The notes under the pieces were generated by a model that did no database searches, had not been told where the DNA came from, and saw only the letters and a list, made by a program, of their open reading frames with translations. A program made the translations under genes and the position numbers. Below, in pieces: positions 249-32,900 of a DNA stretch of 64,000 nt. Source of the DNA: an uncultured Hyphomicrobiales bacterium (GTDB lineage: Bacteria > Bacteroidota > Ignavibacteria > Kapaibacteriales > UBA2268). Each line of letters opens with the position of its first letter. Position 1 is the first letter of the stretch. The stretch lies in the NCBI GenBank assembly GCA_964645005.1, contig CAZXYS010000014.1, positions 4,644-68,643 on the forward strand, in the 5' to 3' direction.

Positions 249-2990
249 TCAGCCTCTGTTTTTTAATTCCTTCATAAAATTTGTCAGCAGTTCTTTCAAT
301 GTGCTGTCCTTTTCGTAATGCCTGTAGTACTCGAGCTCTTTTTGCCAATAATTGCTGTCTGAATTTATTATAGCTTCATATATTTTTTCTCTCAATGACG
401 TATCAAGTTCGGGAATAAATTTTCGCAGTTTTTTAGCATTGTTATAATTCGGCTCAATTCGGGGGATAAGCCTTACGAAGCAACTTTTTATGCTGTCAGG
501 ATATTCGCGGGATAGCAAATTTTTTACAAATTCCGCCTCATAAGTAACTCTTCCGCAAACTGCATTGATCGAGGCTTTTCTGACTATATAGCAGCTATCT
601 GCAATAGCGCTATCCAAAACTGCCATTGAATCCGGCAAAGCTTGTTTGAATTTGGAATGAACAGCGCAGGCTCTGACAATTCGATTCTCATCTTTCATTA
701 ATTTATTCAGTTTTATATTCAAAACTGAATCTTTATAAAACCCGGCTGCAACGGCAGAAAACATGCGCTTCTTCCAGTCTTTTGACTCAATATTTTTTAA
801 AATAGGTTTTACACCTTTTTTGATATGATTCTTTCCGGCGATATTAGCAAATAAACCGTAGGTGAAAGGATTCCCGGATTTGAGAGAATCAATGATCAGT
901 TTATTTACTGCGGAACTATCCCTGTTATAAATTTGGGAAATTATATATTCCAAAGTCTGATTTTCCGTGCATGTTTCGAGGGGTATGGCTGTTTTCAGGA
1001 ATAATACGGCGGCATGCCCTTTCGCGGCTATGTTATCGGCTGCCAGCTTTCTTCTATCCGGTCTTAGAGTATTTCTATCGGCAGCCAATTGAAATAATTC
1101 GAAAATATCTGAGGGCAAAGTGAACGTTGTATCTTCTTCACTGCCTTTTTGTGGATAATCTTCTACAACTTCCCCCCTATTTTCAGTTGATTGCCGGGTT
1201 AGATCTGTCGGCGCGATTGTAATTGCAGGTGTATAATCTTTCGAAATAGTTTCAAACACGGGATCAATACTGATTTTTTCAAAATCGAAAGTATTATTAT
1301 TTGTAGTATCCGCAAGAATTGATATTGAATACGCGCAGTTATCCGCAGTTGGCTTTAACTGCGAATACTTGTCTTTTCCGCTTTCATCGGAAAGACATCC
1401 AAAGGAATAATTTGTGCCGGTTCCCATTGAGGAAAAGTCAGCATTATACGCGTCCTTACCCTTATAATCTCGCAGGAAGCCAAGTCCTGCAAAATTGCCA
1501 AATCCCTGAGAATTTTCAAGAGAATTATAAACATCATCGCCTGAATAATCGAATACCATGCCAAGCGAATATCGCTCGGAAGCGCCCTGAGAAAGGTACT
1601 TGCCCTTGTACTCGTCATCTCCGGCAAAGTCGAGCAGGAATCCTATTCCGCCGGAAGCGATATGCTTCAATCCAACCGCAGATCCCTGATTGAAATAAGC
1701 GCTGTCACTATTTCCATTGCCACTTATTGAAGAAACGTAAAGATCATCGCCTGCAAATTCCGCGAGAACGCCTAATCCCTTGGTGAAACCAAATCCCTGA
1801 GAGAAGGAATTGGATTTGTAAATGTCAGATCCCTGATTATCAATTAAAAAGCCATAACCAAATGCCGCAGCGCCAAGACCGAAGTTATTCACTGAATATA
1901 TATCCGATCCGGCAGCATCAAACAACACACCCAATCCAAAGCTGCCAAATCCAAGCGAATAATCACCTGTAGAATAAGTGTCGTTCCCTGCGAGATCGAT
2001 AAGAAAATTGATGCCGAAAACGCCGCTGCCAAAGGCAAAATCACTGCCGCGGTAAACGTCGTCTCCTGAGAAATCCACTATACACCTTATTGGATGAGAA
2101 AGAACGTCGAACTCGTCCATCTCGGGGCAGACATAGGTATCATTGCCGCCAATGTCGATTATCAATGAGAAATTCCCTTTGTAAATATCGTCGCCTTTGC
2201 CGCCGATAGCGAGTTTTCCGTATTCAGTTTCGATTATAGCGGTTTTAGCGCTGTCTTTGTAAATATCCATCAGGTCAATAGTCTGGGCATTTAATTGACG
2301 CAGCGCCTTTAGCAGGGAAAATCCAATTGAGAAAATATCCGAAGATTCAATACTCTCAGCATGTTTGAGGAATTTTTTAAGCTTTTTCAAATCCTTTTTC
2401 TTTTTGATTTCCGGGTTTTTTGTCTCATTTTCCAAATATTCAAAAATTAACTTATAATTTCTCACGAGATAATTAAATGCCTGCGTATTTTGGACGAATG
2501 AATCCTTATCTACCGCATCAGCAGCAAGTATCAAGGACGACACATATTTATGCAGCAGATTCGAAGCTATGAAATTAGCATGTTTCTCTATCTCTACCTC
2601 TAATTTTGCTTCAACGTAATTACCCGGCAGAGATTCGCCGAATCTATAGCTGACATAATCTTTGTTTTTCAAAAGATTAAGAAGCGGCGGGATAGAAGCG
2701 TCAATCGAATTATCCGTAAATCCGGAAATAATGCCGGTCAGCTTTTCCGAAAGATCATAGCATTTTAGCGGGTCGTAAAGCAGGGAATCGATGATCGGCA
2801 GTCTGTGACTTGTATTATCATAATAATCATTTGGAAGCCAAATATCATGACGTTTCAGATCATTTTGCTCAAGAATTCTATTATAAATAAATTTGTCAGT
2901 TTCTGCTTTTTCCTGTGAATGCAGACAAACTGCGGAAAACAGCAATGTTAAAGAGCATATTATATAAATTATTATATTCATATCAAACAA
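249..2990 (-). CDS. secreted 913-aa protein with a central block of ~23-aa tandem repeats (G-x-D-x-Y ... S-x-G-F-G), flanked by HEAT/PBS-lyase-like helical repeats; function unknown
   Basis: A long ORF with an N-terminal signal peptide (MFDMNIIIYIICSLTLLFSAVCLHS). At least 10 degenerate repeats fit the pattern FxGxDxYxxxxxSxGFGxxxGLGxLxD, suggestive of a β-solenoid. The C-terminal third is helical-repeat-like. The gene abuts gmk. Confidence 0.6.
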   Translation of the reverse strand: MFDMNIIIYIICSLTLLFSAVCLHSQEKAETDKFIYNRILEQNDLKRHDIWLPNDYYDNTSHRLPIIDSLLYDPLKCYDLSEKLTGIISGFTDNSIDASIPPLLNLLKNKDYVSYRFGESLPGNYVEAKLEVEIEKHANFIASNLLHKYVSSLILAADAVDKDSFVQNTQAFNYLVRNYKLIFEYLENETKNPEIKKKKDLKKLKKFLKHAESIESSDIFSIGFSLLKALRQLNAQTIDLMDIYKDSAKTAIIETEYGKLAIGGKGDDIYKGNFSLIIDIGGNDTYVCPEMDEFDVLSHPIRCIVDFSGDDVYRGSDFAFGSGVFGINFLIDLAGNDTYSTGDYSLGFGSFGLGVLFDAAGSDIYSVNNFGLGAAAFGYGFLIDNQGSDIYKSNSFSQGFGFTKGLGVLAEFAGDDLYVSSISGNGNSDSAYFNQGSAVGLKHIASGGIGFLLDFAGDDEYKGKYLSQGASERYSLGMVFDYSGDDVYNSLENSQGFGNFAGLGFLRDYKGKDAYNADFSSMGTGTNYSFGCLSDESGKDKYSQLKPTADNCAYSISILADTTNNNTFDFEKISIDPVFETISKDYTPAITIAPTDLTRQSTENRGEVVEDYPQKGSEEDTTFTLPSDIFELFQLAADRNTLRPDRRKLAADNIAAKGHAAVLFLKTAIPLETCTENQTLEYIISQIYNRDSSAVNKLIIDSLKSGNPFTYGLFANIAGKNHIKKGVKPILKNIESKDWKKRMFSAVAAGFYKDSVLNIKLNKLMKDENRIVRACAVHSKFKQALPDSMAVLDSAIADSCYIVRKASINAVCGRVTYEAEFVKNLLSREYPDSIKSCFVRLIPRIEPNYNNAKKLRKFIPELDTSLREKIYEAIINSDSNYWQKELEYYRHYEKDSTLKELLTNFMKELKNRG
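1310..2210 (-). repeat. intragenic tandem ~69-bp (23-aa) repeat array encoding GxDxY/GFG units
   Basis: The protein translation shows periodic GSDIY / GDDVY / GNDTY / GKDAY / GDDLY / GDDEY motifs spaced ~20–25 aa apart. Coordinates are approximate. Confidence 0.5.
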
Positions 2991-9532: not shown

Positions 9533-9692
9533 GTATTCATCAGATTCCTGCCCTGCTAAAGCAGGATCTAAAGACATTCGCAGGAATGACTTTTCTATAC
9601 TTTTGGGTCAGCCTCATACAGGGGTGGTTAATTTCTTAGGGTTAAATTGTTTATGCTAATGAAAGAATAATCTGATGAAATATCCGGGTTTA
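9533..9692 (+). repeat. composite intergenic repeat (REP/MITE-like); modules shared with 52800-52907 (inverted) and 26298-26375
   Basis: attcatcagattcctgccctgctaaagcaggatctaaagacattcgcaggaatgac...cagcctcatacaggggtggtt aligns at ~85–90% over ~105 bp with the reverse complement of 52800-52907. The following ggtggtt...aatgaaa...tgaaatatccgggtt module matches 26298-26375. Confidence 0.7.
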
Positions 9693-9715
9693 TAAAGACA
9701 GCTAATAATTTGTTA

Positions 9716-10387
9716 TCAATTATTAGGATCCGTATATTTTTTTTTGGATAAGGCATATCTCACCAGCGAGGCAGTATTATTTACGCCCAATTTCTGCATT
9801 AAATTATAGCGATGCGATTCCACAGTGCGGACGCTGATAAACAGCTTCTCTGCTATTTCCGGGCTGGACTTGCCATCTGCGACAAGGTCGAGGATTTCCT
9901 GCTCACGCTTGGTGATTACCACCGGCGTATTATCCGGTTCAGTCTCAGGCAGGACTTTCTTCCGCAATGTATTTATTATTGATCGGCTCAGCACTCTTTC
10001 GCCGCTGATCACGGATTTTATAGATTCATTTAATTCTTTTGCGGAGATATCTTTGGATAGGTAGCCGTTGGCGCCCGCTTCCAGTGCCTGTTCTATATGC
10101 TTATAATCTTCAAAGGCTGTTAACATAATAATATACACTTCCGGCATTTCCTGCTTAATTATCTTCGTAACTTCTATGCCGTTCATTTTCGGCATAAGAA
10201 TATCCAGCAGTACAACATCCGGCTCGTGGTATTTGATAAGATCGACTGCATCCTTGCCATTTGCCGCTTCATCCACGATCTTTATATTCTTATTCACATT
10301 CAATAGCCGCCTGATGCCGCTTCTGACGATTTCGTGATCGTCGGCGAGTAATATCGTCACATCCCTGTCGAAATCAAAATTTGCCAT
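9716..10387 (-). CDS. two-component response regulator, NarL/FixJ (LuxR-type HTH) family
   Basis: A receiver domain (ILLADDHEIVRSG...VVLLDILMPKMNG) is followed by a LuxR HTH (LTKREQEILDLVADGKSSPEIAEKLFISVRTVESHRYNLMQKLG). Confidence 0.9.
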   Translation of the reverse strand: MANFDFDRDVTILLADDHEIVRSGIRRLLNVNKNIKIVDEAANGKDAVDLIKYHEPDVVLLDILMPKMNGIEVTKIIKQEMPEVYIIMLTAFEDYKHIEQALEAGANGYLSKDISAKELNESIKSVISGERVLSRSIINTLRKKVLPETEPDNTPVVITKREQEILDLVADGKSSPEIAEKLFISVRTVESHRYNLMQKLGVNNTASLVRYALSKKKYTDPNN

Positions 10388-10450
10388 AATTTTCTATATT
10401 TTTTATTTTTAATTATAATTTACAATTATAACAAAATCAAGAGTAAAATA

Positions 10451-12394
10451 CTATAAATTTTCGATTTCTCTAAGCCATATCATTGGTTCTGCATCGCTCG
10501 GCATTCGCAAATCGCCGCGTGGCGACATCGCCACCGTTCCTATCTTCACCCCGTCGGGCATAGCAGAACGCTTGTACTGCTGCGAGAAAAACCGCTTATA
10601 GAATATCTTAAGCCATTTTTTGATCTGCTCATCTTTAAAAGTGTCTTTAAATGCCATTTTAGCAAGGAAATATATTTTTGCGGGCGTATAACCATTCCTG
10701 AACATATTATATAGAATAAAATCATGGAAAATGTACGGACCAAGTTCTTCTTCGGTTTCCTGGAGTAATTCTCCGCTGTCGCTAGTCGGAAGCAATTCAG
10801 GTGAAATCGGCGTTTCGGCTATATCTTTCAATAGTTTCGACAAATCGCCGGTATAAACATCTTCCGCACACCATTTGATAATATATTTCACAAGTGTTTT
10901 TGGAATGCCGCTATTGATACCGTACATCGACATTTGATCGCCATTATAAGTCGACCAGCCAAGCGCTGTCTCGGACATATCCCCCGTGCCGATGACTATA
11001 GCCTTGTATTTATTAGCCAGGTCCATAAGAATCTGCGTCCGCTCTCGCGCCTGCGCATTTTCATAGACAATATCATGAGTTTCCGGGTCATGCCCTATAT
11101 CTTTAAAATGCTGCTCGACAGCTCTTTTAATAGGAATTAGCAGATTAGTCGTTCCAAGCGCTTCGACAAGCTTTTCTGCGTTGGATCTCGTCCGATCGGT
11201 AGTACCAAACCCGGGCATATTCACGGTATAGATATTTTTCATATCATACCCGAGTCTCTCAAAAGCCTGCACAGTTGCAAGAAGCGCCAGCGTAGAGTCC
11301 AGCCCGCCGGAAATACCGATTACAGCCCTTTCGCAGCCAATATACTTCATTCTCTTGAGCAGTCCCGTAGTCTGGATCGAAAGAATCTCATTGCAGGTCT
11401 GTTTCCGCTTCGAAATATTTTCCGGTATAAAAGGCTTCTCGTCAATTTTTCTAAAGAATTTATCCGTTTCACTCTCATTTATCTCAACATTTACCACACG
11501 AAATCCCTGCAGCGGCATTGCGGCGCCATAGGTGTTATTCCGGACACGCTGAGTGTTCAGATAGCCAATATCAATGTCACTGTAAATTATCTGCGTATCA
11601 AAGCGAAATCGTTCCGTTTGAGTGAGCAGCGAACCATTCTCAGCAATCATTGAGTGACCGGAGCAGACGATATCCGTCGAAGATTCCCCCGGTCCCGCCG
11701 ATGAATACACATAAGCCGCCATACACCGCGCCGACTGCGACTGCACGAGCTGCATACGATAATCCGTCTTACCCAGGAATTCATCGCTGGCGGAAAGATT
11801 GAGTATTATATTTGCCCCTGCGGAAGCCATATTCAGACTTGGCGGGATCACCGCCCACAGATCCTCGCACATCTCGACGCCGAACGAGCAATCAGGCATA
11901 TTCTCAATATTAAACAAAATGTCCGCGCCGAACGGGGTCAGATCACCGCCGATATTTATCATATCATCGATGCGGTCGGTTTCGCCGGAAAACCACCTTT
12001 CCTCGTAAAATTCGCCCGAATTATCGAGAAAAGTCTTCGGCACGGCGCCTTTAATCTGTCCCTGCGAGATAATAACTGCGCAGTTATATAGCTTCCCTTT
12101 CGACTTAAGCGGCGCGCCAACTGCTACGGTGGACTTTGTCGCTTCGGTTTTGTCAGCAATAGCGAACAAACCGTTGACAACGCTGTCCAGCAGCTTTTGC
12201 TGAAAGAACAGGTCGGCGCAGCTATAGCCGGTAAGGCACAATTCGGGGAAAACCATGAAATAGCAGTCATTTTCAACCCCTTTATTTATTGCTTCGACGA
12301 TCTTTTCGACGTTAAAATCCACATCGGCAGCCTTCATCTCAGGTGTTACCGAGCCGATGCGAACATAATCCATGTCGTTCAATTTGAATTTCAT
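10451..12394 (-). CDS. nadE: glutamine-dependent NAD+ synthetase
   Basis: 647 aa with an N-terminal CN-hydrolase (nitrilase) domain and a C-terminal NAD synthetase domain carrying the PP-loop SGGLDS (GISGGLDSTLALL). Confidence 0.9.
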   Translation of the reverse strand: MKFKLNDMDYVRIGSVTPEMKAADVDFNVEKIVEAINKGVENDCYFMVFPELCLTGYSCADLFFQQKLLDSVVNGLFAIADKTEATKSTVAVGAPLKSKGKLYNCAVIISQGQIKGAVPKTFLDNSGEFYEERWFSGETDRIDDMINIGGDLTPFGADILFNIENMPDCSFGVEMCEDLWAVIPPSLNMASAGANIILNLSASDEFLGKTDYRMQLVQSQSARCMAAYVYSSAGPGESSTDIVCSGHSMIAENGSLLTQTERFRFDTQIIYSDIDIGYLNTQRVRNNTYGAAMPLQGFRVVNVEINESETDKFFRKIDEKPFIPENISKRKQTCNEILSIQTTGLLKRMKYIGCERAVIGISGGLDSTLALLATVQAFERLGYDMKNIYTVNMPGFGTTDRTRSNAEKLVEALGTTNLLIPIKRAVEQHFKDIGHDPETHDIVYENAQARERTQILMDLANKYKAIVIGTGDMSETALGWSTYNGDQMSMYGINSGIPKTLVKYIIKWCAEDVYTGDLSKLLKDIAETPISPELLPTSDSGELLQETEEELGPYIFHDFILYNMFRNGYTPAKIYFLAKMAFKDTFKDEQIKKWLKIFYKRFFSQQYKRSAMPDGVKIGTVAMSPRGDLRMPSDAEPMIWLREIENL

Positions 12395-12539
12395 ATTTCC
12401 CCGAAAGATATTCTTTATAATGACAATTTAACGAATAATTGTCAAAAGTGGAAATATAATAAATTTAATAATAGCAACGCTGTTGATCGGTCTTTATTTT
12501 CGGATCGAGGTACAGCCAAACAACCCCAATAATCAGAAA

Positions 12540-12790
12540 CGGCAGCCTGCTTACGGAATTCCGATTACGTAAGCACGAGTTCCCGCAAAGTTGCACTTCG
12601 CTTCATAATCACAGTAAATAGGGCATGTGAAGTACCGTTCAGAATGCAAAAAGCGAGGTAGAGACAGACCTCTGGTCTGTCAAAACAAAAACTTCTCCCT
12701 CAGGAAGAGGACAGTGTGAGGATTCTTATCCCCCCTCCTTGAATAAAGAGGGGGCTAGGGGGTGGTTAAAATGAACAAAATTGAAACACC
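12540..12790. repeat. cluster of G/C-rich palindromic intergenic repeats in the 570-bp nadE upstream region
   Basis: It contains hairpins gcttacg-N11-cgtaagc, gacagacc-tct-ggtctgtc and cccccctcc-ttgaataaag-agggggc, followed by gggggtggtt. This matches the architecture of the 26262-26300 and 6380-6420 repeats. Confidence 0.5.
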
Positions 12791-12966
12791 CACTACCCCA
12801 TACAAAAAGTTGCAGAAAGTTTAAATCGTTCCTTGAAAACTCAGTCAGATATAACAAAACTCATTGAAAAAAAAGGTTACCCCTGTTTTAACAAAGGCAA
12901 CCTAATCTTATCTTATAATACATTTTACTGTCAGATATAACATTTGACAGTACGAAAAGTAGAGAA

Positions 12967-15900
12967 CTACTCTATAATCAGCTTATGCGTTGTTATCTGG
13001 TCTCCGCTCTGCATCTTAAGCATGTACATGCCTGCCGGCAGATCTTCCGGCGTCCAGGTAAATTCATAAACGTTAGCTTCGAGAGTTTTATCGATCAGAG
13101 TTTCGATAGCCTGACCCATCGAATTGTAAACAGTAATGTTTACATCCGAGTAATTGGAAACGAAGAACTGGATCTTCGTTGAACCCGTGAACGGATTCGG
13201 ATAGGACTTGATCATCTTATCACCGTCGCCGGCAATCGCGCCGAATTCTTCGACAGATTGTACCTCGCCCGCAAGTCCGGATTTGGAGAGGAATGTCCAT
13301 CCGGAGAGCCACATATCATCGCCGAAAGCGCCTATATGATTTACCTGTGTGAAGAAGCCGCCGGCTGGGAGGTCAGCTTTATCATTCGTGAATGCCGGAC
13401 CATCTGGTGCAGGTCTCGGATCGAGAACATTGTTTTCTGTCTGATTGAACAGGCGTCCTACACCTCTGATTTGCGGATTCTGCAGCCAGTTATTGTTAGC
13501 TTTCATGTGAGTTTGAACATAACCCTGATCGGATTTTGTCAGTTCAGCCCAGGAAGTGCTGCCGACGCCGAATTCGTACCACAGATTGTTTGCAAATACC
13601 AGATCGCCCGCTTCCATTCTGTCACGGCTGTCGGGATCATCTTTATCTTCTACGTCAATGATTACACCGGAGCTTGTGCCGGGGAAATCATAGAAAATGC
13701 TGTTTTTATAAGTTGGGGAAGAGTTTTGACGGATCTTGAATACCATATTTTCATATTTCGGATATGCATTGGCTCCTGCCCCGATATACGTAGCATTGTA
13801 AATTATTGGCATCGAAGTCGGCTGGGCGCCAACGACATCATCATGACCGTCATGTTCGCCTGCGCGGTCGCCCGCTTTGACCGTATCTTGTATAGCAAAG
13901 AAGAACTGTCCTTTTCCCTGCCAGCCTTGATCGAGGTCAAATGCATCGTCTTTACAGAATGCCGCAACAAGATACTTACAGCTAACCGTGCCGCCGAACC
14001 ATTCGAAGCCGTCGTCATTATTTGCATAAACTTCGACATGCTCGACAGTGGTTCCGCTGCCGACTGCGCCGAATGTAACGCCATTGATCTCGTCGCCGTC
14101 GCCGAGGTCGGTGCCGCCATGCCGTACGGAAACATAACGAAGAACACCGGAATTATCCGCATCATCAGGATTGTTTCCGCCGCCATAGCTTCCTCGCTCT
14201 TCCGTACTTGGAATACCTTCGATATGACCTTCACCGCCTTCGAGGTTGGTTGTGGCATTACCGAGAATTATCAATCCGCCCCACAAGCCGCGTGTACCGG
14301 CTGGGAGGTCGTTAGGATCGTTAGTATCATCAGCTTCCGCTGTGAATATGATAGGATCGTTAGCTGTTCCTTCAGCCATGATCTTACCGCCGCGGGCGAT
14401 GACTAACGCGCTGGCATTTGCGCCTTGTCCGGGCATACCTTTGATAACCGTACCGGCTTCGATATTCAGCACAGCGCCGTCTTCAACGAAAACGAAGCCG
14501 TTAAGGTGATAGGTGTTATTTCTTGTCCAATTATAAGTTTGACCCGATTTGATGTCGCTGTCGAATACCTGAACATCGTTGCCAACTTCGATCGGACGTG
14601 CAATACCGCTCTGATAGAGCATTGTCCAGTTTCCGATCCAGTAGTTGTTCGGTCCAAATGCTCCAAGATAATCTACATCATCATAAAATTTATTATCGTA
14701 TGTGGCTTTGGCTTTGGACATTGCCGGGCTTCCAGCTTTAGGTCTGGGATCAAGGATGTTATCCTTAGTTTTGTTAAACAATCGTCCAACACCTCTGAGC
14801 ATGGGATCTTCAATCCAGTTATTGTTAGCTTCCATGTGAGTTTGAACATAACCCTGATCGGATTTTGTCAGTTCAGCCCAGGAAGTGCTGCCGACGCCGA
14901 ATTCGTACCACAGATTGTTTGCAAATACCAGATCGCCCGCTTCCATTCTGTCACGGCTGTCGGGATCATCTTTATCTTCTACGTCAATGATTACACCGGA
15001 GCTTGTGCCGGGGAAATCATAGAAAATGCTGTTTTTATAAGTTGGGGAAGAGTTTTGACGGATCTTGAATACCATATTTTCATATTTCGGATATGCATTG
15101 GCTCCTGCCCCGATATACGTAGCATTGTAAATTATTGGCATCGAAGTCGGCTGGGCGCCAACGACATCATCATGACCGTCATGTTCGCCTGCGCGGTCGC
15201 CCGCTTTGACCGTATCTTGTATAGCAAAGAAGAACTGTCCTTTTCCCTGCCAGCCTTGATCGAGGTCAAATGCATCGTCTTTACAGAATGCCGCAACAAG
15301 ATACTTACAGCTAACCGTGCCGCCGAACCATTCGAAGCCGTCGTCATTATTTGCATAAACTTCGACATGCTCGACAGTGGTTCCGCTGCCGACTGCGCCG
15401 AATGTAACGCCATTGATCTCGTCGCCGTCGCCGAGGTCGGTGCCGCCATGCCGTACGGAAACATAACGAAGAACACCGGAATTATCCGCATCATCAGGAT
15501 TGTTTCCGCCGCCATAGCTTCCTCGCTCTTCCGTACTTGGAATACCTTCGATATGACCTTCACCGCCTTCGAGGTTGGTTGTGGCATTACCGAGAATTAT
15601 CAATCCGCCCCACAAGCCGCGTGTACCGGCTGGGAGGTCGTTAGGATCGTTAGTATCATCAGCTTCCGCTGTGAATATGATAGGATCGTTAGCTGTTCCT
15701 TCAGCCATGATCTTACCGCCGCGGGCGATGACTAACGCGCTGGCATTTGCGCCTTGTCCGGGCATACCTTTGATAACCGTACCGGCTTCGATATTCAGCA
15801 CAGCGCCGTCTTCAACGAAAACGAAGCCGTCGAGATGGTAAACATTATCAGAAGTCCAGGTTACTTGTTGTCCGGCTTGAATGTCATCATCGGTGACGTT

Positions 15901-15972
15901 TATATCAGCGGACAAAGCTGCAAAGGGGGCAAAAAGAATGATTATAAGGATCGCATAGAGTTTGTAATTCAT
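12967..15972 (-). CDS. secreted T9SS-cargo protein with two tandem ~443-aa repeated domains (possible β-helix) and a C-terminal Por secretion sorting domain
   Basis: Signal peptide MNYKLYAILIIILFAPFAALSA. The C-terminus KSYPNPFTGSTKIQFFVSNYSDVNITVYNSMGQ...LKMQSGDQITTHKLIIE has the YPNPF T9SS C-terminal domain pattern. The internal domain is duplicated. Confidence 0.8.
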   Translation of the reverse strand: MNYKLYAILIIILFAPFAALSADINVTDDDIQAGQQVTWTSDNVYHLDGFVFVEDGAVLNIEAGTVIKGMPGQGANASALVIARGGKIMAEGTANDPIIFTAEADDTNDPNDLPAGTRGLWGGLIILGNATTNLEGGEGHIEGIPSTEERGSYGGGNNPDDADNSGVLRYVSVRHGGTDLGDGDEINGVTFGAVGSGTTVEHVEVYANNDDGFEWFGGTVSCKYLVAAFCKDDAFDLDQGWQGKGQFFFAIQDTVKAGDRAGEHDGHDDVVGAQPTSMPIIYNATYIGAGANAYPKYENMVFKIRQNSSPTYKNSIFYDFPGTSSGVIIDVEDKDDPDSRDRMEAGDLVFANNLWYEFGVGSTSWAELTKSDQGYVQTHMEANNNWIEDPMLRGVGRLFNKTKDNILDPRPKAGSPAMSKAKATYDNKFYDDVDYLGAFGPNNYWIGNWTMLYQSGIARPIEVGNDVQVFDSDIKSGQTYNWTRNNTYHLNGFVFVEDGAVLNIEAGTVIKGMPGQGANASALVIARGGKIMAEGTANDPIIFTAEADDTNDPNDLPAGTRGLWGGLIILGNATTNLEGGEGHIEGIPSTEERGSYGGGNNPDDADNSGVLRYVSVRHGGTDLGDGDEINGVTFGAVGSGTTVEHVEVYANNDDGFEWFGGTVSCKYLVAAFCKDDAFDLDQGWQGKGQFFFAIQDTVKAGDRAGEHDGHDDVVGAQPTSMPIIYNATYIGAGANAYPKYENMVFKIRQNSSPTYKNSIFYDFPGTSSGVIIDVEDKDDPDSRDRMEAGDLVFANNLWYEFGVGSTSWAELTKSDQGYVQTHMKANNNWLQNPQIRGVGRLFNQTENNVLDPRPAPDGPAFTNDKADLPAGGFFTQVNHIGAFGDDMWLSGWTFLSKSGLAGEVQSVEEFGAIAGDGDKMIKSYPNPFTGSTKIQFFVSNYSDVNITVYNSMGQAIETLIDKTLEANVYEFTWTPEDLPAGMYMLKMQSGDQITTHKLIIE
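13506..14500. repeat. copy 2 of a ~995-bp perfect tandem repeat inside the T9SS gene (1329-bp period)
   Basis: The nucleotide sequence 13506-14500 is identical to 14835-15829 (for example ccctgatcggattttgtcagttcagcccaggaagtgctgccgacgcc at both). Antisense ORFs 13258..14406 and 14425..15735 translate identically over this span. Confidence 0.9.
14835..15829. repeat. copy 1 of the ~995-bp perfect tandem repeat
   Basis: See 13506-14500. The flanks diverge (HMEANNNWIEDPMLRG... versus HMKANNNWLQNPQIRG...). Confidence 0.9.
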
Positions 15973-16002
15973 ATAATAAAACCTCCATTATATTTTAAAA
16001 AA

Positions 16003-18918
16003 TTAATTTATACTATAAGAAATACCTATCGAAAATGTTCTGCCATAGTTATATTGATAATATATATAGTCTTTGCCTTTGAATTCCTGGGCTTTTTTAA
16101 CTCCGGCATTCAGTAAGTTCTTTGCGGAAGCTTTTACCTTGAATCCATCAAAGAGTCGCTGCGAAACGACAATATTCAGATCCGGCTCCGGAAACTGATA
16201 TACGTCGGGTGCTCCCAACGGACTGACCTCAGAGAGTCTCTTCCCGAACACATAGTAGTGTAGGGTTGCCGTAGTACCCCAATCGGGATTTACATAACCA
16301 AGATCGAAGTTTACGATATAGGGTGATTGCCCTTGAAGGGGTCTGTAAGCTGACGCATTCGGGTCGTACTCTCTGATTATCTTGAGTTCATCTTCAGCGA
16401 TCTTAACTTCCGAGTGGATCAATGTTACATTGAATCCTGTCTGAAAATATTTCAACGGTTCGTAGAATGTTCCGAGATTCTTTCTGAATTCGAACTCCAG
16501 ACCGTAAACTGTGGCATCATCAACGTTCTGGAAGTTAATCTCACCGTTTTCGTTTTTAATAACTCTTTCGATGGAATTTTTGAATGATTTGTAAAAGCCG
16601 CTGACAGCAATGATCTCGCCTGGATTCAAGAACCATTCCCATCTTATATCATAATTATCTACAATAGTTCTCTTAAGATTAGGATTCCCGAGGAATATGA
16701 AACTGCCGATAAAATCAAGTGAGGGATACGGCGCCAACTCGCGCATGGTCGGTCTGGCAACGGTTTTACCGTAAGCTGCCCTCAAATTCATATTGCTAAA
16801 TAATTGATAGACAAGATTCACCGATGGCAGCAGATCAAATTGCTCGACTTCTCCTGTGTCAAGTCCGGGATCATGTGAAGCAACCCAAAGATCCGTAGTT
16901 TCGTATCTTGCGCCGCCGATTATTCTTAGATTGTCATAGATGTACCAGTCGATCATACCGTATAGAGCCTGAATATTTCTTTCGCCGTCGTAGCTGCTTC
17001 GTTTTTCTGTCGCGTCGACAACGTGGACGCCCCATTGATAAGTCTGAAGAAGAGAATCATAACCGACTATTCCCATATTATCCTGGCTGAAGTATGCGAA
17101 TGGATCGCCGTAATATCCTTTATCATTGCCCTGATACTTGAATAGGTAGCGTTTCTCTCTGAATTCTCTGAATTTATCCTGATATGAAAATCCTGTCTTG
17201 AATTTGAGTTGTGCTCCAATAACTTCTTTAAGAGGAATTTCAAAATTAACATTGAAATTATATAATTTTTCCTCTAACTGTCTGTAATATCGGGTGGGTG
17301 CAGAATAAAGATTCGTATGAATATAATGTGTGGTTCCGCTGACTGTATCGCCTTTTTCCTTATCGTAGTATGACCAGTGGTGAAAATCATTATTGAAAAA
17401 TCTCATGTCCGGCTCATCCTGAGAGGTCACATTATACGCAAAGTTCCAGTCTAATTTAGAATTCAACAACCACGGGAAGAAATGCTCGCCTTTAAGCTGA
17501 TTTGATGAAATAGACCGCTCCGTGTATTTTAAAGCTCTTGTCTGCATTGTGTCATGAATATCATTCAGATCGTCGGGGAAGATTCCTTCCATGTACCGCG
17601 CCTGAGAAAGCCCGCTCTGATTTCTCATATAATTATATGTTATCTGATGATTTTCATGGAAATTATATGCTGCGTTTACCATCGAACCCCAGAGCGCCTC
17701 ATCTTCTCCTTTATTATCGGCATAATCGTAGGAAACCCGAAGGGAATCAATATTATTTCCTTCGCCTTTTCTAACATATTTATTGTAATCGCCGTTATTA
17801 TAAAGTTTGTATTTTCTGTCATAGCTGAGAGTAGCAAAGAACCCAAGGCTGTTTCCAAACAACTCGAACTGATCGCCGGCGGAAAGTGAGAAGCCGGAAT
17901 TCATTGGGACATGTTTTCTTTTAGGCGCCATTTCGTTATTAAAAGCTTTTGACATTTTGTCTAATTTGTGAGCTGCTTCATCATCCGCATAGGTCATCCC
18001 GTAGTCTGGGACTTCATTGTTCTTGACAATTCCCGGTAATGAGCGCTTACCATTGTCAAAACCAACCCAGTCGGTGCTGCTGTTTGAATATCCGAGAAAA
18101 TCATCGGAAAATGAAGTCTGATCATTATAAGAAGAAGACAGTGAAAAGTTCAGGCTGAATTCCTCAGGGTAAGACCTTGTGGAAATATTAACCGTACCGC
18201 CGGTAAAGCTTCCCGGTTTGTCGGGAGTAGCTGTTTTTACGGTAGTGATGTTCTCGATAAGATTTGTTGGAAAAAGATCGAGATGAACGGATTTTTTATC
18301 CGGGTCGGCGGTAGGAAGATCAGCGCCGTTCAACTGGGTATTACTGTATCTGTCGCCCAAGCCGCGGATATATACGTGTTTGCCTCCGACTGTGGCAGCG
18401 CCGGTAAGCTGCTTGATGGCGTCGGCAGCGTTGCCGCCGCCGGTTCTGGATATTTCTTCCGCGCCAATGGCATCACTGAAAGCTTCCGCTTTCTGACGTT
18501 CTTTGAGCAAAGCGGCGCCGGTTTCCTTAACAGATTTTGCAGTAACTACAACCTCATCTTTTTCCAGAACTTCTTCCTGCATGGAAATATTTATTTTAGT
18601 CACATCATTAGGTTCCACTACTACATTGGTGACTTCCTTTTTGGCATAACCTACATAAGAGAATACCAGCGTATATTCGCCCGGTGGCACATTCTTGATT
18701 AAATAGCTGCCGTCGAATTTACTTACAGCTCCCATTTTCGTGTCTTTTATCATTACACGGGCTCCGATCATATCGCCGCCTGTCTTTTTCTCCACTATTT
18801 TGCCGGAAATTCGCCCTTTTTCTTTACTGTCCTGAGCATAAGTTGATATGCTTAAGAAAACAGTGAACATTAATGCAAAAATGAAAAGAATTCTCATGTT
18901 TTGAATTACCTTTTTCAT
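16003..18918 (-). CDS. TonB-dependent outer-membrane receptor (SusC-like, carboxypeptidase-regulatory-like N-terminal domain)
   Basis: It has a signal peptide, an N-terminal CarbopepD_reg-like β-sandwich (GKIVEKKTGGDMIGARVMIKDTKMGAVSKFDGSYLIKNVPPGEYTLVFSYVGYAKK), a plug region, and a 971-aa barrel ending ...GRTFSIGISYSIN. Confidence 0.8.
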   Translation of the reverse strand: MKKVIQNMRILFIFALMFTVFLSISTYAQDSKEKGRISGKIVEKKTGGDMIGARVMIKDTKMGAVSKFDGSYLIKNVPPGEYTLVFSYVGYAKKEVTNVVVEPNDVTKINISMQEEVLEKDEVVVTAKSVKETGAALLKERQKAEAFSDAIGAEEISRTGGGNAADAIKQLTGAATVGGKHVYIRGLGDRYSNTQLNGADLPTADPDKKSVHLDLFPTNLIENITTVKTATPDKPGSFTGGTVNISTRSYPEEFSLNFSLSSSYNDQTSFSDDFLGYSNSSTDWVGFDNGKRSLPGIVKNNEVPDYGMTYADDEAAHKLDKMSKAFNNEMAPKRKHVPMNSGFSLSAGDQFELFGNSLGFFATLSYDRKYKLYNNGDYNKYVRKGEGNNIDSLRVSYDYADNKGEDEALWGSMVNAAYNFHENHQITYNYMRNQSGLSQARYMEGIFPDDLNDIHDTMQTRALKYTERSISSNQLKGEHFFPWLLNSKLDWNFAYNVTSQDEPDMRFFNNDFHHWSYYDKEKGDTVSGTTHYIHTNLYSAPTRYYRQLEEKLYNFNVNFEIPLKEVIGAQLKFKTGFSYQDKFREFREKRYLFKYQGNDKGYYGDPFAYFSQDNMGIVGYDSLLQTYQWGVHVVDATEKRSSYDGERNIQALYGMIDWYIYDNLRIIGGARYETTDLWVASHDPGLDTGEVEQFDLLPSVNLVYQLFSNMNLRAAYGKTVARPTMRELAPYPSLDFIGSFIFLGNPNLKRTIVDNYDIRWEWFLNPGEIIAVSGFYKSFKNSIERVIKNENGEINFQNVDDATVYGLEFEFRKNLGTFYEPLKYFQTGFNVTLIHSEVKIAEDELKIIREYDPNASAYRPLQGQSPYIVNFDLGYVNPDWGTTATLHYYVFGKRLSEVSPLGAPDVYQFPEPDLNIVVSQRLFDGFKVKASAKNLLNAGVKKAQEFKGKDYIYYQYNYGRTFSIGISYSIN

Positions 18919-19195
18919 AAACCCTACATCTTTTTTTATGAAAAAATGATTATGTAAAAATTGACTTATTTAACAATCTCAAAATTCGCTTGATATTATG
19001 AATTAGATATAAATGGTATGTTAATGTTAAGTTAAATGTAAGAATAGGGTATTTGTATTGCTAATGGTGCTGATGATAAGAAGTTTGCAAAGAGTGTTAA
19101 TTAGGTGTTAAGAAAAGGAAGAAATATTAAGTTTTGCAGAAAATTATCTGTAAATCTAACAAATTTTGAATAGTTTAATAATTTAAGGTAGAATT

Positions 19196-19636
19196 TTAAT
19201 ATTGGTATTGGATTCCAGCTCTGAAAAATCTAAGAGATGACAAAAGCAAAGGGATGCCCATAACAATTAAATAAGTGTACAGCCATACCGGATTGATAAT
19301 CTCAAGATTTTTGATTACTATACTCATAGTGATCATTGTACCTACCAATATGTAGCTTTTAAAATCGAAAAAGGAAAAAAGGCAAGGTCTCTTGATCTTA
19401 ATATTTTTTATCCGCTTGATGTGGCGCGGCGTTATCCTGCGGAACATGCCAAAGTAAAATAATCCGCCGCCGGCAATGCCTATCGTTATATTTATGATGA
19501 TCTGGTCAACATGTTCAGTCAGAAACGATAATGATCTATATAGCAGCATTGAACCCGCGAAAGACCAAAATATCCCTGCTGCGAAGAATAACCCTTTTTT
19601 TGGCACTGCCGGTTTGAATTTTTTTAGAATATTCAT
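19196..19636 (-). CDS. hypothetical small membrane protein
   Basis: A 146-aa ORF with ~4 hydrophobic segments and no recognisable motif. Confidence 0.4.
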   Translation of the reverse strand: MNILKKFKPAVPKKGLFFAAGIFWSFAGSMLLYRSLSFLTEHVDQIIINITIGIAGGGLFYFGMFRRITPRHIKRIKNIKIKRPCLFSFFDFKSYILVGTMITMSIVIKNLEIINPVWLYTYLIVMGIPLLLSSLRFFRAGIQYQY

Positions 19637-27820: not shown

Positions 27821-29962
27821 TTGAAGAATGAAAGAATAAACGGAAAAAACGCTATGACTAATGCTGAATACTCAGCTAAATATATACATATCATTTTCTT
27901 AGCTCTTTTGCTAATAATTTTTTTAAAAAATGATCTTCATTCACAGACAAAAAAAAAGCATCGGCTTCCCGGAACCACTGAGAAAAGCGATTCCCTGATT
28001 ATTGCTCCAAAGGACAGTCTGATGACGGCGGATTCATTGAATCAAATCTCCGATACAACCGCTGCTGCTGACACAACCATAAAGAAAGACACTATCCCTT
28101 TATATACTCCGCTTTACACACATGGAAGCATTTCTCTTACGCCTATGACCAAGTTTAGGAATATAAGAAAAGAAGATCTGCTCAAAGTGAATTATGTTTC
28201 TATATCTGAAATATTAAATAAAAAGCTTCCGATATATCCACTTTCGCTTGATGGTCATATACTTTACAATCATTTTTCTATCATGGGCGCGGCGCCAACA
28301 AATACGGCATTTACTTTCAATGGAAGAACATTGAACGATCCGGAGTTCGGCACGCTCAATCCCGAACAAATACCCCCTGAATTTCTGGAAAGTGCTGAAA
28401 TTCTTGTTGGCAGTGATGCTGTTATTTTTGGAGATAATTCATCAGGAGCCCTTATTAACATCCAGGAGATAAGATACAACACAGGGCAGCCGTATACACG
28501 GATGTGGTTAGGGGAAGCCGGTTATAAATTCTTAGGTGTTGATGGAATTTACAGTCAGAATTTCAAGAAGAACTGGAATTTTAATTTTGGCTTCAGGAGA
28601 TTAGCCGGCGATAATAGATTTGAAAATTCAGCCGCGGACAATTGGAATGTAAGGGGAATTTTAAGATGGAATCCATCCAACAGAACAAGTATATCCTTTG
28701 TCGAAAATTTTACAAATTTCGGAATGGGATTAAATGGCGGTGTTGATGAAACGGCAACGCCGAGCGAATTCTACTGCGATGAGATCCGCGCTCAAACACT
28801 ATATACAACGATGGCTGAAAGAATTTTCCGCCATGATATGACGATGACCTTCAGTCATTATCTCGCCGAGGATTCAATATCAGCGGTTTCAGGGACGCTT
28901 TATCTGACAAGAACGTACTGGGACAGAGACCGTTCTGAAGGCATTCTCTTTGCCGAACCAAAAGCTGAGACAAATTACAGCTACATTAATTTCTTCACTG
29001 GAGCCACAGGTAAGTACGAGCAGAATATAACAAAATATTTCAACTTAAATGCAGGTGGAGAGATAAATTATAATGAAATCCCATCCTCTCCATATACAGA
29101 TGAATGGTTCGGAATTAATATGACTGGCTTCGGCAGGCTTGAAATAGACAATCTCCTGCCCCATACGAAGCTTAGTGGTGGTATCAGATTAGGAGCGTTG
29201 TATGGGCAAATAAAAAATTCCTTTGGTGCCAAAGCGATTTTCAATATCACTGACAGCTTTTTAATTACCGCAGATGTATCCCGCTCTGAGAGAATTCCGT
29301 CTTTATCGGAAATAAAAACTGCCAACAAGGAGAATAACACTTTGTTTTATCTTGATGCCAAACTTAATAAGAAGTATTTTAGTATTAATGGTGGTATATT
29401 CACAAGGTTAGTTGGTTCGCCAATATTACATGATACACTCCAAAATGATCGTGGTACGGTTATCGGCACCAGAGCATACAATGGAGATTCAAGAAAGGCT
29501 CTGGGAGCTTATTTCGGTTTGAGTTGGAAAATTCTCAAACATTTCAAAATTCTACCGGTTTATGATGACGGAAATTTGAATATAGCATTCAAAGGTCAAA
29601 CGAATCTAACATTTACAGATGAAGAAAGAGATTATCGTCTTCCATTGTTATTTGGTAATCTGGAAATTTTCTATCAGGGGCTTGCCGGGCACAGCTTAAT
29701 GAATATTGGGATTAGCACATCTGTTACTACTATTTTTGAAGGTGAACGATATATCCCCTCTAGCAGAGCTTATGTCCCGTATTATATCAGGGACAACTTT
29801 TCGTTTAACGGGATCGATATATTTGCCGAATTGAAACTCGGAAATGCTTATCTCCGGTTAATGCTTGAAAATGCACTATCCCAGTGCTATTACTATGTCC
29901 CTATCTATCCTCAATTCGACAGAAACATAAGATTGATGGTCTCGTGGTCATTTTTCGAATAA
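27821..29962 (+). CDS. TonB-dependent receptor-like outer-membrane protein
   Basis: A plug-like region (ILVGSDAVIFGDNSSGALINIQ) is followed by a ~550-aa β-rich region. A signal-peptide-like segment follows the Met at 27854, which is the likely true start. Confidence 0.6.
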   Translation: MKNERINGKNAMTNAEYSAKYIHIIFLALLLIIFLKNDLHSQTKKKHRLPGTTEKSDSLIIAPKDSLMTADSLNQISDTTAAADTTIKKDTIPLYTPLYTHGSISLTPMTKFRNIRKEDLLKVNYVSISEILNKKLPIYPLSLDGHILYNHFSIMGAAPTNTAFTFNGRTLNDPEFGTLNPEQIPPEFLESAEILVGSDAVIFGDNSSGALINIQEIRYNTGQPYTRMWLGEAGYKFLGVDGIYSQNFKKNWNFNFGFRRLAGDNRFENSAADNWNVRGILRWNPSNRTSISFVENFTNFGMGLNGGVDETATPSEFYCDEIRAQTLYTTMAERIFRHDMTMTFSHYLAEDSISAVSGTLYLTRTYWDRDRSEGILFAEPKAETNYSYINFFTGATGKYEQNITKYFNLNAGGEINYNEIPSSPYTDEWFGINMTGFGRLEIDNLLPHTKLSGGIRLGALYGQIKNSFGAKAIFNITDSFLITADVSRSERIPSLSEIKTANKENNTLFYLDAKLNKKYFSINGGIFTRLVGSPILHDTLQNDRGTVIGTRAYNGDSRKALGAYFGLSWKILKHFKILPVYDDGNLNIAFKGQTNLTFTDEERDYRLPLLFGNLEIFYQGLAGHSLMNIGISTSVTTIFEGERYIPSSRAYVPYYIRDNFSFNGIDIFAELKLGNAYLRLMLENALSQCYYYVPIYPQFDRNIRLMVSWSFFE

Positions 29963-29963
29963 T

Positions 29964-32900
29964 CTATCGATTAATCATTAAAGAACCTGTCACGGGTTCG
30001 ACGTAAAGCACATTTTCAACGTTAATTCTATAATAATACGCTCCAACAGGTACTTTTCTGCCTTTTTTGTCAAAGCCGTCCCAATAAATCTCATTTTCAC
30101 CAAGGGATAGGTCTTTTTCCAGAGTCCTGATATGCTGTCCAACAGGATTATAGATCCGAATAACAGCAGTTCCGGCGTTTTCCGGTGCTTTATAAGTTAG
30201 ATTGAATGTCGTATTTTGTTCAAAAGGGTTGGGATAGTTCTTGTATTCAGTTATTTCATAGTTCCTGTTGATATTGAATCTATAAAGCACTGTATCCTTG
30301 TTTCCTGTTGCATCTTCTGCAGTAACCTGTATCCAGTGTTCCGTGAACTCGCTTGTTTGATCAAGTGAATCAGGTCTTAGTCTTAACAACAACTTGTATG
30401 ACGGATTCTGAGGATCCGGCTCTTTTATAAAATTATATTCTTTTGTATTATCCTGATTTTGATAATAACCGTTTATCTTAACTCTGATATTATCATTCGG
30501 TATCTCCAGTGGTGAATTATCATATATATTTATTTCGAACAGCGGGTTTTTAGGCAAATAAATACCTTCGTATAATTCCTGGCTGCCCGAGATAACCACA
30601 ATTTGAGGTTGTTCCTGATCTTCTCTGACATTTAAGATCGATTTTGCGGAATTATTAAATTTGTAAATGTCCATATCGGTACCATCCGGAGATAGTTGGA
30701 AGTTAACATCGTTTTCCGGATTATAACTCTTTGTGTTTACTATGAACTTTTCTTCAACTCTTTCATCAGGAAGCAAATGACTCTTTGAAAAATCAAATTG
30801 ATCAATTACAACATCTTCGGAGGATACTTCAGTATTGACTTTTACCTGATCGGCAGTTGTTCTAAGAGAAATATTCCGTATGGCAAAACCTATCTCCGTT
30901 TCTAAACCTCGCAGAACGGGAGTCTGTGATATTTTTATACTGCTCCTGGGGATTGCAAGTTCCGGTTGAGGAATAAATTCTGATCGTATCTCCGAAATAT
31001 AAGGCTCTTCTTTTATATTTTCGCCTCTGTTAAGAGTAATATCAATATCTATATAAGGATAATTCCCTGCTGATATTCTTGATAGATCTACCTTTCCGAA
31101 TTCATCAAACTCCAGTAATAAGTCCTTTTGGCTGCCGGAGACATTGTAACCTTGTACTATACCTTTAAGTTCGGTTAGATTGGGGGCAGTACTTCCGTCA
31201 ATACTGAAATTCTTCCATTCTTTAGCAGGTCCGATTCTGATGGTTTGCACACTTGCGGCTGTATCGTAAATAGGAACTTTTCCGTCGATTACAGCATCCC
31301 TGCCTTCGGGATCATGAGCTTCCACAACTTCATCCGGTACTGCATCTTTGAATGAAAACATTGCGTAGGAGGAGGATTTTTTAACGGAATCAAACAATGT
31401 TGTTGAAAATTCTTCTCTGAATACTTTTTTAAGTGTATCTATTGAACCAATGCTGGGAGGTGTACGCTTTGAAATGGGTACTTCGAAAGACCTGTCACAG
31501 GTAGCTATGAACACGTAATGGTTATTATTTATTGAATCTCTGATAAAATTAACCAGCTTTATCGATGAGGAATCATCCTTCCATGTGTCAAAGCCATGTA
31601 TCTTTCCTTCACCTGTATTTTTGGAGATAGTTACTACGCTGAAGCCCCTTGCATATTCGGTGTTTACATAAACATCAGAGTTTATTTCAATATTAGCCCA
31701 TCTTTTAGAAGGCGGAGTTCCCTTTGATGAAAGGCAGTAATAATCCACTTGTTTGTCAGGAATTTTATATTTGCCATGATTTTCATTGGTCAAATTGAAA
31801 TTATGTTTGTTCGATGATAATTCCTCAGCAGTATTTTGACTCCAATGTACAATTTCGCTGCCGCCTGTTTCAGAAGCATAAAAAGGTACTTTTAGCCATG
31901 TACTGAATTCTTGCTCATTCATGTTTCTTAATCTTGCGAAGAACCAGTAAGATGTACCATTTTCCAGTTCAATATCCGGTTTCCACTGGATGAAGGATTC
32001 ATCAATATCAAGGTCATCCGTATTTGCGCTGATAAGTGCATTCGCGCTGTCGACAGATGAAGTTTTTAGATGCATCTCGTATTCAAATTCACCTTCCTCA
32101 GCAAAGAGGTTTAATACCCTGAAGATCGGTTCACTGGAATTCACATCCCAGAATGCCATGGGATCAAGGACTGATACTCCCGGGGCGAACACATCTATGG
32201 TAGCTGAGACAGCATTATTTTCTCGATGAATCTCATTAGTTTCCTTCTCCGGGTCAATAATAACATCGATCACATGCTGCCCGGGCATATCTTTCACAGG
32301 TATTTTAAATGAGAAATTCTCATTATAGCAGGTACCGTTAATTTCAAAATCATAAATATCAGTTTTTCCATTGTAAATCCTTATAACCCTGACGATGTAT
32401 GGCTCCGGCAGTGATGTCCCGGCATTATAAATCGAACCGGAAATGGTCACCGAGTCATTTTCTGTGGTGATTATACTTGAACCTTCCTCAGATGCTAATT
32501 GAAAGTCACCTTTAAGGAAATATAGATCGGGAACTGTATCAATTTTAATTCTGGTATATGGATCGCCCAGATACAGATAGTGTTCCAGAGCCCTTAATTC
32601 CAGGTCATTTTTTGTTGATAAGGAAGCCTTGCCTGCAAAGAAAATCTCACCAAGTTCTCTTTTAGCATCTTGTTCCATACCCTGAAGCATGTAATACATT
32701 ATCTTTTTCTCAATAAGGGCACTGCTTACGGCTGTAGCACCCATAGACGCTATAGCCCCTTTCTCCGGAGCCATCAGATAAGATTCATTTCGGGAGTAAA
32801 CTTTTGGATTGGCAAATTCACCTGAATTACAGGAAAGCGTAGAAAAAATAAAATACTTGCCGTAATTATTCAGGGTCTGCACCTGCCAACCATCCAAATC

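Follow-up and report, generated by a model that had tools for sequence, protein, structure and literature searches.

A stretch of 64,000 nucleotides (nt) of contig CAZXYS010000014.1, referred to here in its whole length as the window, carries on its minus strand (12967-15972) a gene for a secreted protein of 1001 amino acids (aa). According to the open reading frame (ORF) list and its translation, this protein is composed of a putative signal peptide, two Beta_helix_4 modules and a type-A sorting domain of a type IX secretion system (T9SS). We found that the cores of the two modules are identical to the letter over 998 nt, while the module ends on either side have diverged to about half identity. 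We consider it likely that this exact repeat results from a recent intragenic gene conversion of the core, superimposed on an old tandem duplication of the module.

The two copies were defined by aligning the window against a copy of itself shifted by 1329 nt. Module 1 (14581-15909, minus strand, aa 22-464) is a right-handed parallel beta-helix, and module 2 (13252-14580, minus strand, aa 465-907) is its paralogue. The exact run covers 14833-15830 in the core of module 1 (aa 48-380) and 13504-14501 in the core of module 2 (aa 491-823), both on the minus strand, and forms a direct, in-frame repeat with a period of 1329 nt, or 443 codons (3 x 443). An earlier note on this DNA had placed the repeat at 13506-14500 and 14835-15829 with a period of 1329 bp or 443 aa; the offset self-comparison returns the same pair and the same period, with an exact run that is up to two bases longer at each end. 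BLAST of the 998-nt tract recovered two copies only within the window, and neither a third copy of the repeat nor a third copy of the module was found there. Tandem Repeats Finder did not report the repeat because the longest period that it considers is 500, and a general repeat scan of the window listed only a 300-nt reference pair for it.

The identity ends abruptly on both sides. In an ungapped offset comparison using bins of 50 nt, identity drops within 50-100 nt of the tract to 0.74 and then 0.58 at one edge and to 0.52 at the other, and further out it reaches the background of about 0.25. A gapped alignment of both 1329-nt units contains 154 differences in 1332 columns, none of them inside the identical stretch: they occupy the 79 columns that precede it, where the gapped identity is 49%, and the 255 that follow it, where it is 55%. 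The two peptides that the earlier note quoted for the diverged flanks are present in the translation. If the 154 differences were placed randomly, the probability of 998 columns free of differences would be about 1e-90, so that chance is excluded as the source of the tract.

Next we compared both modules codon by codon in terms of synonymous (pS) and nonsynonymous (dN) divergence. The N-terminal 26 codons have a pS above 1, which is saturated, and a dN of 0.49; the C-terminal 83 codons have a pS of 0.76, likewise saturated, and a dN of 0.47; and the central 333 codons have a pS of 0 and a dN of about 0. At the protein level this corresponds to 86.8% identity overall and 100% over the 333 aa of the core. 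The diverged N-terminal end of module 1 (15831-15909, minus strand; 50% nt identity) is paralogous to the N-terminal end of module 2, and the diverged C-terminal tail of module 2 (13252-13503, minus strand) is paralogous to the tail of module 1. Between the two cores lies a unique inter-module junction (14502-14832, minus strand) made of the tail of module 1 and the N-terminal end of module 2, both diverged. Because the flanks are saturated while the 333-codon core has a pS of 0, the codon comparison indicates that the modules are ancient paralogues of which the middle was made identical very recently; the older duplication postulated by the earlier note is confirmed by these values. A run of identity far longer than the divergence of the paralogues would allow, with sharp edges, is the mark of a gene-conversion tract, and the repeat shows it, with a core pS of 0 against saturated flanks.

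The junction also speaks for a genuine two-module arrangement: its sequence agrees with the inter-module consensus of 33 two-module homologues and carries the motifs LDPRP...GAFG...W..GWT and, after them, V.VTD.DI.

A fresh duplication of the whole unit would have made the flanks identical as well, which makes conversion the most economical explanation. If R denotes the exact core and n and c the diverged N- and C-terminal ends of each module, the observed order n1-R-c1-n2-R-c2 fits gene conversion because a single non-reciprocal transfer of about 1 kb suffices to produce it. We propose that an old tandem duplication would have made both modules, the ends of which then diverged to saturation. 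Homologous recombination of the RecA type between misaligned modules, within one chromosome or between sister chromosomes, may subsequently have overwritten about 1 kb of one core with the sequence of the other, without reciprocity, erasing the differences between aa 48-380 and aa 491-823, and the diverged ends would limit where the heteroduplex starts and ends. The ends would keep position-specific sequence as N- or C-terminal caps or linkers, probably acting as a cap after the signal peptide, as the inter-module joint and as the joint to the sorting domain. The resulting 998-nt direct repeats, being in frame, would now make unequal crossover efficient and could give rise to one-module alleles of 558 aa or three-module alleles of 1444 aa.

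GC-biased gene conversion was considered and rejected. The GC content is 48.7% for the gene, 50.6% for the core, 42% for the junction and 40.6% for the window, and the GC content at third codon positions of the core (0.486) is inside the range of the other ORFs of the window (mean 0.426, standard deviation 0.059, maximum 0.556). The excess of the core lies at codon positions 1 and 2, that is, in amino-acid composition.

We then asked how the modules of related proteins evolve. For modules of one and the same protein, the median aa identity across 119 homologues is 80% and the maximum 98%; compared with the modules of the protein studied here, those of the homologues are only about 41-60% identical. 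Within proteins, identity is 0.88-0.92 in the cores and 0.57-0.66 at the ends. For a direct comparison we used pairs of two-module proteins with cores that are 80-90% identical. In these pairs, core identity is 0.93 within a protein versus 0.85 between proteins and is higher within the protein in 95% of the pairs. The tails behave in the opposite way: identity is 0.69 for the same position in different proteins versus 0.59 within a protein, being higher between proteins in 90% of the pairs, and same-position identity exceeds cross-position identity in 100% of them. Since cores group by protein and tails by position, concerted evolution is confined to the core; this phylogenetic incongruence between related pairs, with cores sorting by genome and tails by position, was thus found in the family, and the nearest relative of the locus studied here has modules about 57% identical to its own. 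In the tested lineages, therefore, the duplication predates the species splits and the cores were homogenised afterwards.

Furthermore, exact tracts of 0.3-1.3 kb are present in at least 12 other lineages, with differing endpoints (loci are numbered with the prefix L). The longest exact tracts measure 1277 and 1257 nt in two Melioribacter loci (L005 and L024), 1235 and 937 nt in two loci of Verrucomicrobiota (L020 and L042), 878 nt on a metagenome scaffold (L083), 809 nt in Saprospiraceae (L016), 771 nt in L030, 716 nt in L002, 533 nt in L041, 479 nt in both L107 and L108, and 288 nt in L001; a tract of about 660 nt in a Kapabacteriales locus (L084) is common to all three modules. On the unit, endpoints fall at aa 24-419, 36-338, 92-388, 112-372, 145-367 and 63-249, and all of these tracts straddle the core. 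A fixed structural boundary for the tracts can be rejected, as the endpoints differ between lineages; because they vary and yet centre on the core, the tracts look like independent conversion events. The very recent gene conversion proposed in the earlier note is in this way supported by the order n1-R-c1-n2-R-c2, by the concerted evolution of the family and by analogous tracts elsewhere.

Two of these cases differ in extent. The three-module homologue of 1440 aa at L084 (1496-5025, NODE_151) has its tract of about 660 nt at offsets 1329 and 2658, and because all three modules share one exact tract, homogenisation spans more than two units. In the metagenome-assembled genomes of Melioribacter (L005, 5001-7567, and L024, 5019-7583), 1277 of 1290 and 1257 of 1296 nt of the unit are identical, and the register of the repeat is shifted to include about 100 nt upstream of module 1, which looks like a whole-unit duplication or a very long conversion.

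Several points weigh against recent conversion or limit its reach. The exact identity and the copy number are as assembled, and any age or direction given to the event would be provisional; no sister strain was found in the protein and metagenome searches. Long exact tracts are also associated with the assembly technology, which we judged from contig names and record titles: exact tracts of at least 288 nt are present in 10 of 19 SPAdes-style contigs, and none was found in the 9 loci that we classed as long-read or isolate, the longest exact runs of which measure 15-120 nt (Fisher test calculated by hand, p value of about 0.007). This difference is a hint that assemblers of short reads may turn near-identical copies into identical ones. 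Within the family, the positional signal of the tails is weak at deep divergence (0.464 vs 0.438), and independent re-duplications may contribute alongside conversion; because this signal fades, occasional longer conversions or re-duplications must also occur in the family. Many lineages have moreover not been homogenised recently, with a core pS of 0.29-0.87 among the long-read, isolate and MEGAHIT-type loci examined. In the same loci nonsynonymous differences (pN) are 0.03-0.15 in the cores versus 0.15-0.46 in the tails, and because the cores have the lower pN, the contrast between core and tail at the protein level is partly due to purifying selection. Homogenisation in the family is episodic, not continuous.

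The strong constraint on the cores of relatives might be taken to mean that purifying selection alone keeps the two cores identical, with no recombination involved. Selection at the protein level, however, does not conserve synonymous sites, and there are 0 synonymous differences in 333 codons, whereas the equally constrained cores of relatives have diverged at their synonymous sites over the range given above. These synonymous-site data refute the selection-only reading, and we attach next to no probability to it. A recent duplication or an unequal crossover, for instance by way of a three-module stage that then lost a module, or by way of a new copy of the segment with the core, is improbable, even though the number of modules varies from 1 to 4 in the family and the units of L005, L024 and L020 are identical over nearly their whole length (1235-1277 of 1290-1365 nt), which resembles whole-unit duplication. 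A single unequal crossover would produce hybrid cores and an altered copy number, not identical cores between four diverged flanks, and the order n1-R-c1-n2-R-c2 would need at least two precisely placed events, compared with one conversion tract.

A larger share of the remaining probability, although still a minor one, goes to the assembly itself. Under this explanation the assembler sharpened cores that are truly about 96-99% identical, or it undercounted an array of the form A-(R-B)n-R-C with at least three modules. Assemblers based on de Bruijn graphs may collapse small bubbles between near-identical copies and walk the collapsed edge twice; in such an assembly a reported 100% could stand for any true identity from roughly 97% upwards, and the loop traversals give a lower bound on the number of copies. 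The exact protein was found on one NCBI contig of 97,061 nt, which is of the metagenome type, and sequence of the region recurs at 100% among the Logan contigs of run SRR7048219. Short-read assemblies account for most of the long exact tracts, and the enrichment of such tracts in SPAdes-named contigs, together with their absence from the nine long-read or isolate loci, agrees with a contribution of the assembler. On the other hand, bubbles collapse only if the copies share k-mers at intervals of a few hundred bases, which means that the true identity would already have to be high, and the abrupt drop to 49-55% at both edges belongs to the genome and not to the assembler. L107, L108 and L109 represent intermediate states, in which exact tracts of 479 nt occur as well as tracts that are near-identical apart from a few mismatches, and L109, which is probably a long-read contig as its name is in the style of a long-read assembler (ctg302702_6.65x_l), passes from an identity of 0.72-0.76 to 0.99-1.0 over about 700 nt and then to 0.68. 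Because L109 shows the same mosaic and L107 and L108 are intermediate, a purely technical explanation is weakened. Sharpening by the assembler also overlaps with gene conversion, as the recent homogenisation would still be real: since bubble collapse cannot make cores of 75-90% identity identical, recent homogenisation stands either way.

That the contig is a chimeric misassembly, with one real module and a junction taken from another strain or species, is very improbable. The metagenomic origin would allow it, and in the Logan assembly, an independent assembly of run SRR7048219, contigs stop close to the gene, at 15852 and at 12629. The junction 14502-14832, however, has R on both sides, so that any genome with this junction carries two modules or more; its sequence agrees with the consensus of the 33 homologues; and among multi-module genes, those with two modules and the same length are the most frequent. 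The Logan contigs themselves match the window at 15852-19262 (L081) and 9644-12629 (L085) at 100%. They are only 3-3.4 kb long, and they stop 22 nt short of the repeat and 338 nt past the gene, respectively. Because they are fragmentary and end away from the edges of the repeat, they carry no information on it, and a Logan lookup of the predicted C-terminal fragment found nothing. As for sister alleles, an exact-protein lookup gave no contig, and the cluster of the protein has one member; the best other homologue has 52-53% identity over the whole protein, the metagenome scan reached at most 52%, and the source genome was not among the results of the genome scan. Of the assembly artefact that the earlier note had offered as an alternative, a single true module is thus excluded by the family-consensus junction, and an artefactual exactness or copy number has the minor probability given above.

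With recent gene conversion as the preferred explanation, we turn to the protein that carries the tract. A putative Sec-type signal peptide was read from the translation at aa 1-21 (15910-15972, minus strand; MNYKLYAILIIILFAPFAALS); its hydrophobic stretch ends in ...FAALSA, and the AlphaFold2 model is helical at aa 2-17. Module 1 begins straight after it, with no other N-terminal domain, and a short linker of low confidence separates module 2 from the T9SS type-A sorting domain at the C-terminus (aa 924-1001; 12970-13203, minus strand). This domain was detected both as Por_Secre_tail PF18962 (45.2 bits, cutoff 27, E value 1.1e-11) and as TIGR04183 (49.1 bits, cutoff 23, E value 4.2e-13), and a profile search of the PDB gave a weak match to the Por C-terminal domain chains 8glj_D and 8glk_D. 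Two models above their cutoffs at the extreme C-terminus confirm that this is a T9SS cargo gene, as had been proposed from the sequence in the earlier note.

The modules were assigned to Beta_helix_4 (PF28492) from the precomputed match on the identical database protein (P0001), which also carries a precomputed PF18962, and on all 119 homologues; hmmscan with local Pfam and NCBIfam libraries matched the C-terminal domain alone, the local copy of Pfam being without the PF28492 model. The AlphaFold2 model of the 1001-aa protein has a mean predicted local distance difference test (pLDDT) score of 86.6, and its modules have the right-handed parallel beta-helix fold of Beta_helix_4. In the PDB profile search the beta-helix modules had no sequence-level match to solved structures, only the sorting domain being matched, and with Foldseek every match to the PDB had an E value above 1e-3. 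Acidic motifs (DDGFEWFGG, DDxFDxDxG, GE.DG and NEING) are invariant in the modules and would suit a Ca2+-dependent binding or catalysis. Once exported by the T9SS, the protein would probably be kept on the cell surface, where its beta-helix modules may act on a polymer by binding or cleavage. The fold makes a glycan the likeliest such polymer, and its products could enter through the adjacent TonB-dependent receptor described below. Opposite the gene, on the plus strand, are three antisense ORFs, at 13258-14406 (382 aa), 14425-15735 (436 aa) and 15754-16116 (120 aa); the repeat makes the first two to a large extent counterparts of each other, and none of the three has any sign of being a gene.

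The family is large and its module number is variable. A whole-protein search gave 3624 homologues among the 8000 candidates scored, and the 120 homologues listed have two or three modules each. A single-module search against 1.84 billion representatives matched 6762 clusters (50% identity) at an E value of at most 1e-3 and 2715 clusters at an E value of at most 1e-30, with 1 to 7 matched stretches per protein. Across 101 loci we counted 46 complete genes with one module (and 9 cut by the contig end), 30 with two (and 3 cut), 10 with three and 3 with four, none of the genes in the last two classes being truncated in this way. The family occurs, among others, in Ignavibacteria/Melioribacter, Bacteroidota, Zixibacteria, Latescibacteria, Fibrobacterota/Chitinivibrionales, Gemmatimonadota, Rhodothermia/Balneolales, Verrucomicrobiota and Acanthopleuribacter. 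The cores of a three-module protein (P0002) and a two-module protein (P0075) are 90% identical, so that module number changes over short time scales in the family. Given this pair, and given relatives with 1-4 modules, it is plausible that the copy number is unstable in the source population as well.

The beta-helix gene has a conserved partner. A TonB-dependent receptor gene (16003-18918, minus strand), with CarboxypepD_reg, Plug and barrel domains according to Pfam and NCBIfam, is located 30 nt upstream on the same strand, and the two genes are probably co-transcribed. A terminator-like hairpin with a 13-bp stem followed by a T-run (12874-12903, minus strand), found by consensus scan only, sits 64 nt past the stop codon of the beta-helix gene and is the probable end of this two-gene transcript. 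Of 80 genome loci, which span the Fibrobacteres-Chlorobi-Bacteroidetes (FCB) group of phyla and Verrucomicrobiota, 63 have a same-strand homologue of the receptor gene next to the beta-helix gene, as does every additional locus that was retrieved by protein (L082-L084 and L107-L109). In Saprospiraceae/Lewinellaceae and other Bacteroidota (L010, L012-L014, L016, L018, L022, L033, L061, L063, L069, L074-L076 and L079) the beta-helix gene has the receptor gene on its downstream side, and elsewhere on its upstream side; the pairing is conserved, the gene order is not. The receptor scores 63.9 bits against the SusC/RagA model TIGR04056 (cutoff 368), of which the N-terminal domain alone is covered, and 234 bits against the TonB-Xanth-Caul model (cutoff 310), and neither a SusD-like neighbour nor a regulator nor a glycoside hydrolase was found at the cassette.

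The genes flanking the pair are housekeeping genes (NAD synthase, a response regulator and ClpP/ClpX). Elsewhere in the window, a protein of 1939 aa (29964-35783, minus strand) combines Peptidase_C25 (E value 6e-65) with a C-terminal FlgD_ig-type domain; it is gingipain/PorU-like and probably related to the T9SS, and a gene for an outer-membrane protein with Plug and Porin_10 domains (27821-29962, plus strand) adjoins it. An ORF of 1828 aa (43152-48638, plus strand) has no Pfam match except a C-terminal FlgD_ig-type domain and may encode another large secreted protein. No core Por/Gld or Spr gene was identified within the window. An ORF of 913 aa (249-2990, minus strand) has no Pfam match at an E value of at most 1e-5. 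A UvrD-type helicase fused to a PD-(D/E)XK nuclease (1248 aa, 48986-52732, plus strand) resembles AddA/RecB, so that a recombination-initiating enzyme of this kind and the conversion tract share one window.

Arrays of near-identical tandem folded domains are known from Periscope and related surface proteins of Gram-positive bacteria, such as SasG/Aap, Rib/alpha C and the SHIRT domains of Sgo_0707 (PMC8201768). In these proteins high DNA identity both results from and promotes intragenic recombination, repeat number varies among relatives, and an identity between adjacent domains far over the usual <50% is described as unusual (PMC8201768). The protein studied here resembles them in being destined for the surface and in having tandem, near-identical folded domains. 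Unlike the Periscope proteins, it has no stalk that projects a separate N-terminal ligand-binding domain: the repeated unit is a large beta-helix of 443 aa with acidic residues, probably the functional part itself, and not a small stalk domain. It has two copies (with up to four modules in the fetched loci) and a T9SS C-terminal domain in a diderm where the Gram-positive proteins have a sortase motif; its homogenisation is limited to the module core, with position-specific ends; and its gene is coupled to a TonB-dependent receptor.

The tufA/tufB genes and the rRNA operons are the classic bacterial cases of gene conversion between paralogues, in which non-reciprocal transfer of the RecA type gives rise to identical tracts bounded by diverged sequence, and it is the hallmark of concerted evolution that paralogues within a genome are more alike than orthologues between genomes. 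In contrast to these cases, the partners here are adjacent in-frame modules of one gene, and for this reason the same homology also drives in-frame changes of copy number. In the carbohydrate utilisation (CUT) loci of Xanthomonas and Caulobacter and in the SusC/D polysaccharide utilisation loci (PULs) of Bacteroidota, TonB-dependent transporters are accompanied by secreted glycan-active proteins. The present locus is similar in that a TonB-dependent transporter adjoins a same-strand gene for a secreted protein of the pectin-lyase fold, and it differs from a SusC/SusD PUL in having no SusD-like gene and a receptor far below the SusC/RagA cutoff. With known beta-helix enzymes and depolymerases (Pel9A of family PL9, 1ru4; AlgE4, 2pyg; PL6 lyases; phage tailspikes) the modules share a sequence identity of only 6-16%, a likeness of fold alone, and two identical tandem modules are not typical of such lyases, epimerases and depolymerases.

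The repeat is accordingly best described as a conversion tract, not as a mobile element or a new system, and its exactness needs to be treated with care in short-read assemblies. The literature searches found nothing relevant on PF28492/Beta_helix_4 or on the combination of TonB receptor, T9SS and beta-helix; judged by the literature searched, both the family-level concerted evolution of modules of 443 residues and the conserved pairing with a receptor are new observations, and the mechanism is familiar. The family also provides a practical test set for metagenome assemblers on near-identical intragenic tandem repeats at the kilobase scale. More generally, module identity within a protein need not mean a recent duplication.

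Taken together, these comparisons show strong concerted evolution of very large tandem modules in the large Beta_helix_4 family, the members of which are nearly always paired with a TonB-dependent receptor, and they predict in-frame length polymorphism in natural populations, with alleles of 1, 2 or 3 modules. They also draw attention to a conserved two-gene outer-membrane cassette, the substrate of which is worth determining. As a tentative and rather speculative extension, Beta_helix_4 proteins and their TonB receptors may jointly form a widespread, uncharacterised nutrient-capture cassette, spanning FCB-group phyla, Verrucomicrobiota and some Acidobacteriota with thousands of clusters, that exploits intragenic recombination functionally. 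If so, conversion would maintain identity among the cores for substrate binding or catalysis in proteins with 2-4 modules; a change of specificity would then reach all modules and multivalency would be preserved, while the position-specific caps would be shielded from conversion and unequal crossover would tune the number of modules.

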